DNA from: Patescibacteria group bacterium
GTDB lineage: Bacteria; Patescibacteriota; Patescibacteriia; 2-12-FULL-60-25
Direction of reading: 5' to 3'
Length of the DNA stretch: 64,000 bases
Assembly: GCA_041658705.1 (NCBI GenBank)
Contig: JBAZZT010000004.1
Location: 30,758-94,757 of the forward strand
The translations under genes were made by a program, and so were the position numbers. The notes under the pieces were generated by a model. It worked only from the letters and a program-made list of their open reading frames with translations. It searched no databases and was not told the DNA's origin. This document shows positions 7,681 to 42,703 of this stretch, in pieces; within the stretch, counting starts at the first letter, position 1; every line of letters starts with the position of its first letter.

Positions 7681-8151
7681 TCACTCCGGAATTTCGACCT
7701 TGGGGTCGTGACGCCGGAACGCGCGGAGCAAGAATCGTTCGCGTTTGATGAGCGGGCAGTGCGGCAACAAGTCGCGGATCCGGAACATGCGCCAGATGAA
7801 CGCCTTGGCCGTCTTGTCCGTCACATCCTTGAAACGGTGCGCTTTTTCGACCACGAGTCCGATGGAGGATGGATCGTTGAAGAGCAGCGCGCGGGCGACT
7901 TGGCCGAACGAGTAGATGTCACGGGCTTGATCCAGGTCGCGCGGTGAGACGTGATCCGGGACAAAGTCATGGCTCTCGTTCAACGTCTCCACCTCCTTCT
8001 GCAACTTGACCCGTTCGATATCACGTTCGTCCACCAGCCCGCGTTCCGCGAGCTGTTCGGCCAAGGTCTTCCTCGGTCCGGTTTGAGGTTTGGCTTGGGC
8101 TTTCGAAGCCAAGCCGCGTGCCGCCAGTTGTTCCGCCAGGGTTTTGTTCAC
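7681..8151 (-). CDS. Hypothetical protein (156 aa) with a duplicated N-terminal TLAEQLAxRGL motif
   Basis: GTG start preceded by AAGGAG. The repeat TLAEQLAARGL / TLAEQLAERGLV is weakly reminiscent of DUF2058/YaiL N-termini. The family call is not secure. Confidence 0.55.
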   Translation of the reverse strand: MNKTLAEQLAARGLASKAQAKPQTGPRKTLAEQLAERGLVDERDIERVKLQKEVETLNESHDFVPDHVSPRDLDQARDIYSFGQVARALLFNDPSSIGLVVEKAHRFKDVTDKTAKAFIWRMFRIRDLLPHCPLIKRERFLLRAFRRHDPKVEIPE

Positions 8152-8434: not shown

Positions 8435-9160
8435 ATGTCTCGGCATTCAAAATGGTCCAAAGTCAAACAGTTCAAAGGTGCTGTCGATGCCAAGCGTTCG
8501 GCGTCGTTCACCAAGCTGGCGCGCGAGATCACGGTCGCGGCGCGCGAAAAAGGACCTGACCCGAGCATGAACGTGCGGTTGCGCGTGGCCATGGACCGGG
8601 CGCGCAAAGCCTCCATGCCAAAAGACGCCATCGAGCGGGCGGTGGTGCGGGGAGCGGGGACGGGCGCGGACGCGGCGATCATCGAGTCGTTGACTTACGA
8701 AGCGTATGCCCCGGGCGGGACCGCGCTGGTCGTCGAGTGTCTGACTGACAACCGCAACCGTTCGGCTAACGACGTGAAGCACGCCTTATCCAAACACGAA
8801 GCCAACCTGGCGAGCCAAGGTTCGGTCACTTATCTGTTCGACAAAAAAGCGGTGGTCAAGATTCAGGGCGGATTGCCCGCGGACAAGCGCGACGAGATGG
8901 AGCTAGCGCTCATCGATGTCGGAGCTGAAGACATCGAAGACGTCGACGGGACGACCGAAGTCAGGGGAGCGCCGGCGGATCTATCTAAACTCGCCGATGC
9001 GGCGCAAAAACTCGGGCTCACGCTCGAATCGGCCGAGTTCGAATGGATACCGAAGTCGCTGGTCGAGACGAATGAAGAAAACGGAACCAAAGTCGCGGAG
9101 CTGATCGATGAATTGGAGAACCTCGACGATGTCGCGCATGTTTATTCTAATTTGGCGTAG
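8435..9160 (+). CDS. yebC: YebC/PmpR-family transcriptional regulator (TACO1 family)
   Basis: Family-typical N-terminus MSRHSKWSKVKQFKG. ATG at 8435 is preferred over the upstream TTG at 8414. Confidence 0.9.
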   Translation: MSRHSKWSKVKQFKGAVDAKRSASFTKLAREITVAAREKGPDPSMNVRLRVAMDRARKASMPKDAIERAVVRGAGTGADAAIIESLTYEAYAPGGTALVVECLTDNRNRSANDVKHALSKHEANLASQGSVTYLFDKKAVVKIQGGLPADKRDEMELALIDVGAEDIEDVDGTTEVRGAPADLSKLADAAQKLGLTLESAEFEWIPKSLVETNEENGTKVAELIDELENLDDVAHVYSNLA

Positions 9161-9831: not shown

Positions 9832-10875
9832 ATGAGCCTCAACCCCTTCGAAACCTCCAAAACCAAAATAGTCCCTGAACCAGTCGAAGGGCTACCTAGT
9901 ACCTCCGGTATCCGCCGCCAGGATTTGCCGACCCACGTCAGGAAGTACGCGGATAAACTCGCTGCGCAGATTAAAGAGATCTACGCCAAATACGGAGCCA
10001 AGAATTTCGAAGAGCTTAAAGAGAACAAGAAACTGTCTGCGCAAGATGCGCGTAAAGTTGCGGATCTGTTCAAAGCCTTCCAGAAAGCTGTCGAGAAGAA
10101 CGAGATTGAATCGGTCAGCCCGCAGGAAGCTATTGAAATCCTGGGTCGCGAGAACGTCCATGGCATCGAGGACGTCGAAGCCATGCTAGGACAAGGTTTC
10201 GTCGACATCTCTAAAGTCCCATCAATCCCGTACACTGCAGACGATTTGAATAAATCCAATGAGATAAAAGAAAAAACCGGCGTCGAAGAGATGCTTGTCC
10301 TCTTTGTCGCGGATGAAGACGGCAAACCTCTCACCGGAGAACGCATGAATGAACTCATCCAAGCGGAATATGACAAGCTCGGCCTAGGCAAATTCCTACT
10401 TAATACCGATTGGTATAAGAACAAGGACCTCTTCACGAAACTAGGCTTGAACTACGAATGGAAGCTCATCACCAAACAAACCATCCCTGGTTCAAAGAAC
10501 AAACGTCATCACTACGAACCAGGCGACCGCTTCACCCACCAAGACACCCAAGAGTTCGTCATCGAGGAATACGCCAAGCAACTCGATATCCCGCGCAATC
10601 AACTGCATCGCCCAGAGCCCTTCCAGATGCTTTATGCTACCGCTCTTCACTTGATTACGACCGAACGTCTTGATGGTCAGGGCAAAGGTGAACGCTTCCT
10701 CAAGAATGAATATCACTGGTCTGATGTTCGCTCCTCGGATGGGAACCTCGTGTATGTCGGCTCTGCCGATTCGGTTGGCGCGGACGTGGACAGGACCTCC
10801 CGTGACGTTGGGAATGGTTTTTTCGGTGTCTGCCTTTCGCGTGAGCCTTTTTCTACCAAATCCTTGAACACTTGA
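9832..10875 (+). CDS. Paralog A of a 3-member family; putative DGR-type variable protein with a C-type-lectin/FGE-like C-terminus
   Basis: 347 aa, highly similar to 10898..11908 and 41110..42150 except for the last roughly 45 codons. No signal peptide. Confidence 0.85.
   Translation: MSLNPFETSKTKIVPEPVEGLPSTSGIRRQDLPTHVRKYADKLAAQIKEIYAKYGAKNFEELKENKKLSAQDARKVADLFKAFQKAVEKNEIESVSPQEAIEILGRENVHGIEDVEAMLGQGFVDISKVPSIPYTADDLNKSNEIKEKTGVEEMLVLFVADEDGKPLTGERMNELIQAEYDKLGLGKFLLNTDWYKNKDLFTKLGLNYEWKLITKQTIPGSKNKRHHYEPGDRFTHQDTQEFVIEEYAKQLDIPRNQLHRPEPFQMLYATALHLITTERLDGQGKGERFLKNEYHWSDVRSSDGNLVYVGSADSVGADVDRTSRDVGNGFFGVCLSREPFSTKSLNT
10729..10875 (+). other. VR-like hypervariable block 1 (3' end of paralog A)
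   Basis: Aligns codon-for-codon with the TR-like element 42440..42586. Amino-acid differences fall on the template's AAC/AAT/GAC/CAC codons. Confidence 0.65.
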
Positions 10876-10897: not shown

Positions 10898-11908
10898 ATG
10901 CCCACCAACCCCTTCGAAACCGCCCCGAATCTCACCACCTCCCACATCCGTCGGCAGGATTTGCCGACTCACGTCAGGCGCTACGCCGATAAACTCGCGG
11001 CGCAGATAAGAGAAATCTACGCCAAATACGGAGCCAAGAACTTCGAAGAGCTTAAAGAGAACAAGAAGCTGTCGGCGCAAGACGCACGCAAGGTGGCTGA
11101 TTTGTTCAAAGCCTTCAATGATGCAGTCGAGAAGAAAGAGGTCGAACCTGGGTTACAGGAAGCCATCGAAATCCTAGGTCGCGAAAACGTCCACGGCATC
11201 GAAGACGTAGAAGTCATGCTGGGGGATGGTTTTGTGGACGAATCAAAAGTCCCACCCATCCCATACACTCCTGAAGAGCTTGAGAAATCCAAAGAAATCA
11301 AAGAAAAGACCGGCGTCGAAGAGATGTTTGTCTTATTCGTCGCTGACAAGGACGGCAGACCGCTCACGGGAGAGCGCATGAACGAGCTCATCCAAGCTGA
11401 ATACACCAAGCTCGGGTTGGGCAAATTCCTGCTCAACACCGATTGGTACAAGAATGAGGACTTTTTTAAGAAGTTGGGTTTGAGCTACGAATGGAAACTC
11501 ATCACCAAACAAACCATCCCTGGTTCGAAGAACAAGCGTCATCACTACGAACCTGGAGACACCTTCACCCACCAAGACACCCAAGAATTCTCTATCGAGG
11601 AATACGCCGAGAAACTCGATATCCCTCGTGACCAGTTACAGCGCCCAGAGCCTTTCCAAATGCTCTATGCGGTTGCCCTTCATTTGATCGCGACGGAACG
11701 CCTCAACGGCAAGGGTAAAGGTGAACGCATCCTCGCAAAAGAGTATCACTGGTCCGATGTCCGCTCCTCGCATGGGAGCCTCGTGCGCGTGGGCGGCCAT
11801 GCCGATTCGGACGGCGCGCACGTGCACAGGAACCACCGTGGCGTTCAGGGCCTCGATCTCGACGTTTGTCTCTCGCGTGAATCTTCTTCCAAATCCTTGG
11901 ACACTTGA
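10898..11908 (+). CDS. Paralog B of the same family
   Basis: 336 aa, tandem to paralog A across a 22-nt gap, with the same conserved body and a divergent C-terminal block. Confidence 0.85.
   Translation: MPTNPFETAPNLTTSHIRRQDLPTHVRRYADKLAAQIREIYAKYGAKNFEELKENKKLSAQDARKVADLFKAFNDAVEKKEVEPGLQEAIEILGRENVHGIEDVEVMLGDGFVDESKVPPIPYTPEELEKSKEIKEKTGVEEMFVLFVADKDGRPLTGERMNELIQAEYTKLGLGKFLLNTDWYKNEDFFKKLGLSYEWKLITKQTIPGSKNKRHHYEPGDTFTHQDTQEFSIEEYAEKLDIPRDQLQRPEPFQMLYAVALHLIATERLNGKGKGERILAKEYHWSDVRSSHGSLVRVGGHADSDGAHVHRNHRGVQGLDLDVCLSRESSSKSLDT
11762..11908 (+). other. VR-like hypervariable block 2 (3' end of paralog B)
   Basis: Same anchors (cgctcctcg ... tcgcgtga). Relative to the TR-like element it carries one extra codon and one missing codon. 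Confidence 0.55.
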
Positions 11909-41109: not shown

Positions 41110-42150
41110 ATGCCCGCCAACCCCTTCGAAACCCCTAAAAGTAAAATAGCCCCTGAACCTGTCGAAGGGCTACCTTATACTTCCGGGATTCGTCGGCAGG
41201 ATTTGCCGACCCACGTCAGGCGCTACGCCGATAAACTCGCTGCGCAGATAAAAGAAATCTACGCCAAATACGGAGCCGCTAACTTCGAGCAGTTAAAAGA
41301 GAACAAGAAGCTATCAGCTCAAGACGCACGCAAGGTGGCTGATTTGTTCAAAGCCTTTCAGAAAGCCATCGAGACTAAAGACGTTGAACTAGACCTCGAA
41401 GAAGCCATCGAAATCCTGGACCGCGAGAATGTCCACGGCGTTGAGGACGTCGAAGCCATGCTAGGCGAAGGTTTCGTCGATATCTCCAAAGTCCCACCCA
41501 TCCCATACACTCCTGAAGACCTAGCCAAATCCAAAGAGATCAAAGAGAAGACTGGCGTCGAAGAGATGCTCATCCTCTTCGTCGCTGACAAGGACGGAAC
41601 GCTACTCACGGGAGAACGCATGAACGGACTCATCCAAGCTGAATACACCAAGCTCGGCCTGGGTAAATTCCTGTTCAACACCGACTCATATAAGAACGAG
41701 GACTTCTTCAAGAAGCTGGGCTTTAACTACGAATGGAAGCTCATCTCCAAACAGACCATCCCCGATTCAAAGAACAAGCGCCATCATCACGAACCAGGAG
41801 ACAGCTTCACGCATCAAGACACCCAAGAGTTCGCCATCGAGGAATACGCGAAGAAACTTGATATTCCACGTGACCAATTACATCGTCCAGAGCCGTTCCA
41901 GATGCTCTACGCCACCGCTCTCCATCTGATTGCGACCGAACGCCTCAATGGCCAGGGCAAAGGCGAACGCATCCTCGTAAACGAGTATCACTGGTCTGAT
42001 GTTCTTTCCTCGGATGGGAGCTCTGTGCTCGTCGGCTATGCCGATGCGGACGGCGCGCGCGTGAGCGGGAGCTCCCGTGTCGCTCGGCTTGGTGGTCTGG
42101 GGGTGGGTCTTTCGCGTGAGCCTTTTTCTTCCAAATCCTTGGACACTTGA
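41110..42150 (+). CDS. Paralog C of the variable-protein family, adjacent to the TR-like element
   Basis: 346 aa. Same conserved body as 9832..10875 and 10898..11908, with a divergent C-terminal block. Confidence 0.85.
   Translation: MPANPFETPKSKIAPEPVEGLPYTSGIRRQDLPTHVRRYADKLAAQIKEIYAKYGAANFEQLKENKKLSAQDARKVADLFKAFQKAIETKDVELDLEEAIEILDRENVHGVEDVEAMLGEGFVDISKVPPIPYTPEDLAKSKEIKEKTGVEEMLILFVADKDGTLLTGERMNGLIQAEYTKLGLGKFLFNTDSYKNEDFFKKLGFNYEWKLISKQTIPDSKNKRHHHEPGDSFTHQDTQEFAIEEYAKKLDIPRDQLHRPEPFQMLYATALHLIATERLNGQGKGERILVNEYHWSDVLSSDGSSVLVGYADADGARVSGSSRVARLGGLGVGLSREPFSSKSLDT
42004..42150 (+). other. VR-like hypervariable block 3 (3' end of paralog C)
   Basis: Same length as the TR-like element. 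By hand count, 18 of 26 template adenines are substituted versus 14 of 91 other positions over 39 codons. Confidence 0.65.
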
Positions 42151-42175
42151 TACTTGACCCTTGGACCCTTAATTT

Positions 42176-42203
42176 TTGTTTTCGAATTTTTTTTTGGTAG
42201 AAT
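42176..42203 (+). promoter_or_regulatory. Candidate promoter (TTGTTT, 16-nt spacer, extended -10 TGgTAGAAT) for the TR-containing transcript
   Basis: ttgttt tcgaattttttttt tgg tagaat. Confidence 0.45.
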
Positions 42204-42439
42204 AATCACAGGTCATCCCGCTGCGGTGCGGCGGAATGTGCGGTCGGCAACGGTCGCATGGCTGTTGCACTCCTCGATTAAGGTCGCGGGGTCGCCTGCC
42301 TAATAAAAGAAGCTCACTGCTTGTCCTGTCCTGAAGCGGACTCTGACGGGGTCAGAGAGCGGCCGCTGCGTGATCATACAATGGGAACCGCCGGGATTTG
42401 GTCGAACCCATGCTGCCCAAGATGGGACAGGACAACAGA

Positions 42440-42586
42440 CGCTCCTCGGATGGGAACTTTGTGAACGTCGGCAACGCCGATTCGGACGGGGCGAACGTGA
42501 ACAGGAATTCCCACGACAATCGGAACGACAATCTCGGCGTTTGTCTTTCGCGTGAGTCTTTTTCTTCCAAATTCTTGGACACCTAA
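42440..42586 (+). repeat. Template-repeat (TR)-like copy of the paralogs' C-terminal block, Asn/AAY-rich
   Basis: Conceptual translation RSSDGNFVNVGNADSDGANVNRNSHDNRNDNLGVCLSRESFSSKFLDT. It has 9 Asn codons (AAC/AAT) among the 26 codons from GNF to DNL, exactly where the three VR blocks vary. Homology to the paralogs starts abruptly at cgctcctcgg. Confidence 0.65.
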
Positions 42587-42703
42587 CTCTTGAAGTTTGG
42601 ATTTTAGCATCAGCCTTTTTTCATCCGTCGATTTGGGGCTCATCTTGCATCGGACAAGCCTCGAACTTGACTTTTTTACCACCTTACTCTATTCTATGCG
42701 CAT

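Follow-up and report, generated by a model that had tools for sequence, protein, structure and literature searches.

The variable region VRc of this Patescibacteria genome probably derives from a fourth template lineage, referred to as D, and not from TR-B, the template repeat (TR) that lies next to it. This reading, to which a probability of roughly 60% is assigned, further holds that the variable regions (VRs) VRa and VRb have mostly drifted, and that the VRs of the window are static and the diversity-generating retroelement (DGR) system built on another template, TR-A, is active. The window, meaning the whole 64,000-nt stretch of DNA that was analyzed, corresponds to G000:C4:30758-94757, where G000 denotes a 1.48-Mb genome in 22 contigs from a Patescibacteria group bacterium.

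Window variable regions and their mismatch to the local template

Three paralogous target genes were found in the window (9832-10875, 10898-11908 and 41110-42150), and the last ~36 codons of each are hypervariable (VRa, VRb and VRc, respectively). The VR-bearing genes and the template cassette of the window are listed below in window positions.

9832..10875, + strand: target paralog with VRa (core 10732-10839); 15 non-adenine mismatches to TR-B and 11 to the putative donor D
10898..11908, + strand: target paralog with VRb (core 11765-11875); 13 non-adenine mismatches to TR-B, 7 of them non-synonymous; +3 and -3 indels
41110..42150, + strand: target gene with VRc, an ORF of 346 aa, one of ~27 paralogs genome-wide
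42007..42114, + strand: VRc core; 18 adenine and 12 non-adenine differences from TR-B; member of backbone group D
42115..42165, + strand: 3′ flank of VRc, spanning the final 12 codons, the stop codon and a weak hairpin of 5 bp; kept across VR copies
42195..42203, + strand: extended -10-like box (TGGTAGAAT) preceded by a T-run; conserved ahead of each of the three template cassettes
42207..42442, + strand: structured leader of ~236-240 nt immediately preceding TR-B; shares 88-90% identity with the TR-A and TR-C leaders
42443..42550, + strand: TR-B, a template repeat without a reverse transcriptase (RT); 25 adenines; private GGG
42551..42601, + strand: 3′ flank of TR-B; VR-like sequence retained

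TR-B is intergenic, rich in Asn codons and located 436 nt 3′ of VRc, and the next gene is nusA. The VRs lie at the 3′ end of their target ORFs. The fold of the target was not recognized by Pfam, and no PDB profile matched below E = 0.05; the AlphaFold model has a mean pLDDT of 42, and a C-type lectin (CLec) fold is unreadable from so poor a model.

Mismatches were counted over a 108-column core in a MAFFT alignment of the four window copies, which is ungapped except for the extra VRb codon. Adenine-site changes relative to TR-B number 18 in VRc, 13 in VRa and 14 in VRb. For VRc, 18 of the 25 template adenines are changed vs 12 of the remaining 83 sites (Fisher p = 1e-7). Column entropy, computed over 26 VRs, reaches 1.71 bits at template adenines; at the other columns it is 0.54 bits, as in the flanks. 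Both the adenine bias and the non-adenine mismatches are real: the window VRs are DGR products that misfit their local template, and the adenine-only differences of a clean TR/VR pair are seen neither for VRc with TR-B nor for VRa or VRb.

An initial sequence-only reading of the window had proposed that the VRs share non-adenine states that TR-B lacks, and this proved correct, with 12, 15 and 13 such mismatches for VRc, VRa and VRb. As it had described, GGG is replaced by GGC in all three window VRs (and in 23/26 VRs genome-wide), CAC is replaced by CGT in all three, and VRa and VRc share a third-position T at columns 33, 72, 84 and 87. The length differences that it reported for VRb were likewise recovered, as a +3 insertion (the extra codon) inside the core and a -3 deletion (the missing codon) in the 3′ flank. 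Its own caveat, that the shared differences might be artefacts of alignment by hand, is ruled out by the ungapped MAFFT core and by the identical VRc sequence in an independent JGI assembly.

The hairpin after the VR is limited to a stem of 4-5 bp (TCCAA/TTGGA), with z-scores of -0.7 to +0.8 vs shuffled sequences. Downstream of the VR, the 3′ coding flank shows DNA-level conservation among the paralogs, synonymous positions included, and it is retained by TR-B and TR-C but not by the active TR-A. The conserved flank at 42115-42165 may be a candidate IMH-like recognition region.

Template cassettes and reverse transcriptases

A blastn search of G000 with TR-B returned ~27 VR-like gene ends on 14 contigs together with two further template copies, TR-A, which adjoins a reverse transcriptase gene (RT1), and TR-C, on contig C9. 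Each of the three templates lies 436-439 nt 3′ of a target gene. The TGGTAGAAT box was not flagged by a simple promoter scan. For the leader, a fold with several helices is predicted, two of whose pairs show compensatory changes; no Rfam family matched it. TR-A lacks the VR-like 3′ flank and has a terminator-like hairpin in its place. TR-B retains the promoter box, the leader with its compensatory changes, and all adenines.

The sequence-only reading had offered, as one of two explanations, that a second cognate TR exists next to the RT. Further templates do exist, TR-A beside bAvd and RT1, and TR-C, and they jointly carry the expected states: GGC in both, CGT and AAT GGT in TR-A, and AAT at column 33 in TR-C. 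Neither is a clean donor, with 13-21 mismatches to the window VRs, so the genome search that had been suggested yielded two templates but none that fits the window VRs at all non-adenine positions.

TR-C (G000:C9:21182-21300) carries a +1 T insertion near its 3′ end and has G at four 3′ positions that are adenines in TR-B. Homing from TR-C would frameshift the target, and TR-C looks partly decayed. In a related strain from another metagenome, a piece of contig Ga0172379_10022871 (positions 1030-1520 of the piece) carries a target gene, its VR, the promoter box and the full leader, and the template is deleted, the leader directly abutting unrelated sequence. The template loss on this contig and the changes in TR-C indicate that cassettes decay.

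A DGR-type RT was defined by an RVT_1 domain with an [ILV]GxxxSQ motif. No such RT was found in the 64-kb window, and TR-B and TR-C are both RT-less. Two complete DGRs are present at the start of the same contig, both outside the window, as listed here in contig coordinates.

G000:C4:1397-2386: RT1, RVT_1 at 69 bits, DGR motif LGNLTSQ
G000:C4:9042-10019: RT2, RVT_1 at 89 bits, DGR motif LGNLTSQ
G000:C4:7000-10019: DGR2, unrelated to DGR1, with a 354-aa target, VR at 7929-8060, TR at 8463-8594, and RT2

DGR1 is arranged in the order target (with VR C4_408), leader, TR-A, antisense bAvd and RT1, with TR-A, bAvd and RT1 at G000:C4:~870-2386. RT1 and bAvd thus lie ~70 kb upstream of TR-B on the same contig. 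The bAvd gene (PF22296, 58.9 bits) is antisense between TR-A and RT1; no bAvd was found beside TR-B among the window ORFs or by Pfam search. RT2 is 48% identical to RT1, and the VR of DGR2 is clean, with ~23 adenine changes and none at other sites within the VR.

The sole ATG of bAvd (1360-1395, in a piece of G000:C4 outside the window) is followed by a poly-C tract whose length is 10 C in G000 and 9 in the JGI assembly. This ATG is out of frame in both assemblies, and 8 or 11 C would place it in frame. The bAvd of DGR2 has the same layout of an out-of-frame ATG and nine C (G000:C4:~9000-9020). The poly-C at the start of bAvd could serve phase variation or slippage control of DGR activity.

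Fit of variable regions to the three templates

Only TR-A has a clean partner, C4_408, with 18 adenine changes and no non-adenine change. TR-B is a clean donor for no complete VR. Three VRs, C22_408, C4_108469 and the paralog at the C10 locus (whose VR sequence was taken from ENA assemblies), fit TR-C over the first ~70 columns and TR-B over the last 39 with 0-2 mismatches; the last 39 columns are without non-adenine mismatch to TR-B, and there is no mismatch at the TR-C/TR-B junction. These 39-column matches could reflect 3′ patch homing from TR-B, or from an older intact TR-C with the same 3′ part. The three VRs with TR-B tails were unchanged between assemblies.

A two-template mosaic of TR-A, TR-B and TR-C was rejected for the window VRs, with a Viterbi cost of 12-15 and 5-8 sites that no TR accounts for. 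Clean 3′ runs have a bimodal length distribution: they extend over 108, 41, 39, 39 and 39 columns in the template-fitting VRs and over 6 (VRa), 3 (VRb) and 8 (VRc) columns against any TR in the window VRs, which thus lack 3′-terminal TR identity (the IMH GC element). The earlier proposal that VRc was not recently homed from the local TR-B agrees with these data, since VRc is 12 non-adenine sites away, has a clean 3′ run of 8 nt, and is unchanged across assemblies.

Backbone classes and the putative template D

Pairwise comparison of the VRs revealed groups with near-identical non-adenine columns and many adenine-site differences. Group D comprises VRc, C9_20746, C2_62428, C3_27986 (JGI variant) and C12_33412, at loci unlinked to VRc. 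VRc shows 3-4 non-adenine differences from C3_27986-JGI, C2_62428 and C9_20746. Over the first 99 columns, VRc and C3_27986-JGI have no non-adenine difference and 14 adenine-site differences, and the two genes differ by 13.6% overall, at the usual rate up to the first VR codon. The chance of zero non-adenine differences in this pair is P(0 of 72 sites) = 3e-5. Furthermore, VRc and C3_27986-JGI share two derived non-synonymous states (columns 17 and 40) that are absent from the other D members. Two direct routes between these loci were considered and rejected: VRc mRNA did not serve as template for C3_27986, as the differences are not at VRc adenines, and general gene conversion between the two is at odds with the sequence just upstream of the VR, which diverges at the normal rate.

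D was built as a consensus donor from four members, with C12_33412 left out of the construction. C12_33412 has 1 mismatch to D vs 7, 11 and 13 to TR-A, TR-B and TR-C, and the G000 form of C3_27986 is an exact mosaic of D (67 columns) and TR-A (41 columns). D reads AAT (columns 31-33), GGC, TCC-CGT and AAT-GGT-GGT where TR-B reads AAC, GGG, TCC-CAC and AAC-GAC-AAT. A donor with exactly the states anticipated by the sequence-only reading is required by the backbone that VRc shares with four other VRs; it was present in no assembly searched. Template D was found neither in G000 (blastn and fuzzy pattern search) nor among JGI metagenome contigs with the leader 30-mer; the leader 30-mer retrieved no D cassette from metagenome, genome and viral collections; the D pattern had no match in species genomes; and a template pseudo-ORF search of the protein collection returned only TR-A and TR-B ORFs. 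Representatives of the same genus and family carried no DNA-level homolog of the locus or leader, which leaves the proposed comparison with sister genomes without a counterpart.

VRa is D-like in its central part only. No donor fits VRa or VRb, and both look drifted; of the three window VRs, VRb is the most decayed.

The shared states might instead have arisen by drift alone, with no separate D: the VRs would have last homed from the ancestor of TR-A, TR-B and TR-C, after which the VRs drifted under coding constraint and TR-B freely, the shared states being ancestral. Several observations agree with this account. The non-adenine mismatches are mostly synonymous third-position changes (12/15 in VRa, 9/12 in VRc), the shared window states are the family majority, and the GGG of TR-B is a private change (1/26 VRs). 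D differs from TR-A, TR-B and TR-C at 6, 8 and 7 fixed non-adenine sites, and being about equidistant from the three it could be their common ancestor and not a separate copy. Moreover, non-adenine VR distance tracks gene-body distance (Mantel r = 0.49, p = 0.001). Drift alone is nevertheless considered unlikely, because it does not account for the 99-column agreement of VRc and C3_27986-JGI described above in genes 13.6% apart, because their shared derived states at columns 17 and 40 need a later common donor, and because adenine-site distances carry no phylogenetic signal (r = 0.05), which indicates that mutagenesis continued after the paralogs split.

Differences between assemblies

The same strain was compared between G000, the JGI/NCBI assembly (3300028032 / GCA_041648195.1) and ENA assemblies. 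The assemblies compared are probably from the same or sibling samples, so that a VR described as static is static over a short time only. Over C4:1-5386, G000 and the JGI assembly differ by 16 substitutions, all of them inside VR C4_408 and 15 at TR-A adenines (Fisher p = 2e-11). The lone non-adenine change is a T>A (GGT>GGA) at C4:517 in the JGI variant, beside a mutated AAC codon. The C3_27986 locus (4011 nt) shows only 6 differences, all confined to a 14-nt patch that lies at the 3′ end of its VR. The G000 sequence matches TR-A perfectly over the last 41 columns there, and the JGI/ENA version fits D (NNT and GGT codons).

The window locus, in contrast, is identical between G000 and the JGI assembly over 6041 nt covering VRc, the leader, TR-B and nusA. 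The exact VRc protein was found on three contigs, and records at NCBI, JGI and ENA contain the VRa and VRb proteins in exact form. Unchanged VRs make up 17/20 of those assessable between assemblies; within group D, VRc, C9_20746 and C2_62428 are unchanged and C12_33412 differs by a single codon. Adenine-specific turnover is thus seen at C4_408 and at the C3_27986 3′ patch, and none at the window locus. The turnover at these two loci indicates that the DGR system is active in the genome.

The second explanation of the sequence-only reading, that the system had stopped homing and everything was drifting, accordingly fails for the genome as a whole, where the partner VR of TR-A and one remote VR differ between assemblies at VR positions only. 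It is a reasonable description of VRa and VRb, locally and on a short time scale.

The last 125 nt of contig C10 (G000:C10:49994-50118) are identical to C4:108531-108655, and the ENA assemblies have a different VR and flank at that place. The C10 contig end in G000 is probably chimeric.

A further possibility is that D persists, in a gap of the assembly or a region that varies between strains, and continues to diversify VRc. Many contig ends fall inside paralog genes, so a repeat-flanked cassette could be missing, and the group D backbone is very well preserved. This is distinctly improbable, given that no group D VR changed between assemblies save the one C12_33412 codon, that the D-type patch at C3_27986 is the variant replaced by TR-A-type sequence in G000, and that a leader 30-mer scan of the source metagenome gave no extra cassette.

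That TR-B is the true donor and a low-fidelity RT made the non-adenine mismatches is highly improbable. DGRs of bacteria of the candidate phyla radiation (CPR) often show several non-A-to-N substitutions, for which lower fidelity has been suggested (Wu et al., PMC5758913), and the active VR has one T>A change in its JGI variant. However, the same non-adenine states recur in many independent VRs, as random errors would not, and the active pair shows 0-1 non-adenine changes among 16-18. An alignment artefact or a chimeric assembly among paralogs is hardly credible: the C10 end, on which ENA disagrees, indicates that local chimeras occur, but the alignment is ungapped, the JGI assembly reproduces the 6-kb window locus without a difference, and three contigs encode the exact VRc protein.

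Proposed model

Under the favored reading of a fourth lineage, the window VRs would be part of a DGR network with several paralogous templates. Retrohoming would copy the non-adenine backbone of the template into the VR, so that VRs would fall into backbone classes. VRc would carry the backbone of the template lineage D, which would make the adjacent TR-B a paralogous RT-less cassette and not the VRc donor. The window VRs would have lost the exact 3′-terminal template identity that cDNA integration needs, and TR-A would still rewrite its adjacent VR in full as well as short 3′ patches of a remote VR that matches its 3′ end. The loci that turned over are those with long TR-A runs, so a lost 3′ match likely blocks homing at the window VRs. 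We infer both the existence of D as a template and this block to homing from comparison of the sequences.

It is also conceivable, and is put forward tentatively, that a single RT/bAvd pair serves several cassettes in trans (TR-B, TR-C and D), each defining a target class, with 3′ patch homing mixing the backbones. In such an arrangement TR-B would be, or would recently have been, a working template and not a relic, and the shared leader would recruit the enzyme.

Comparison with known systems

In Treponema denticola, DGRs have several TR types, and some remote targets fit a TR type since lost from the strain; these targets were interpreted as remnants of a DGR component that had disappeared (Nimkulrat et al. 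2016, PMC4891356). The targets described here also point to a template absent from the assemblies searched. T. denticola, however, has one TR per genome with types spread across strains, whereas three cassettes occur here in one 1.48-Mb genome, two of them RT-less, with ~27 targets in backbone classes. In cyanobacterial DGRs, targets are duplicated within the genome, remote VRs show graded TR homology, and the targets are CLec domains (Vallota-Eastman et al. 2020, PMC7517822). Dispersed target paralogs are common to both systems; neither multiple template cassettes nor a leader RNA was reported in that cyanobacterial study, whereas both are found here, and the present target has no Pfam or PDB match.

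In Bordetella phage BPP-1, cDNA integration starts at the 3′ end of the VR, in a GC element over which VR and TR do not differ (Guo et al. 2011, PMC3240598). Internal homology of at least 8 bp suffices for the 5′ junction, so that conversion can be partial, and 3′ identity is needed (PMC3240598). The 14-nt and 39-41-column 3′ patches observed here behave like such partial conversion. In BPP-1, avd precedes the TR and has the same orientation. The present system, by contrast, has bAvd antisense between TR and RT; it also has a 240-nt structured leader before the TR and just the 4-5-bp stem after the VR, and TR-B and TR-C keep a VR-like 3′ flank.

The Patescibacteria host and the frequent non-adenine substitutions are shared with DGRs of the CPR set (PMC5758913; Patescibacteria clade 2, Roux et al. 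2021, PMC8144416). In the CPR DGRs, frequent non-A-to-N substitutions were put down to low fidelity, no target having more than 11 non-adenine differences and single targets being the usual case (Wu et al. 2018, PMC5758913), in contrast to the 12-15 non-adenine differences found here in a ~27-member family. The cause of the non-adenine differences here appears to be donor mismatch or age and not RT infidelity. What sets the system apart from these known DGRs is that a single genome has several template cassettes, of which two lack an RT, together with natural patch homing.

Implications

DGR surveys usually pair a VR with its nearest TR, and non-adenine mismatches are then read as RT infidelity or inactivity. 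In the present genome, such mismatches sort the VRs into donor-backbone classes, part live from frozen targets, and indicate a template absent from the assemblies searched. The differences between assemblies provide natural-population evidence for trans homing into a remote paralog and for short-patch conversion at the 3′ end. Should cassettes that lack an RT and share a leader indeed work in trans, one enzyme could support many diversification programs in a minimal genome, and the leader would be a candidate RT-recruitment RNA.
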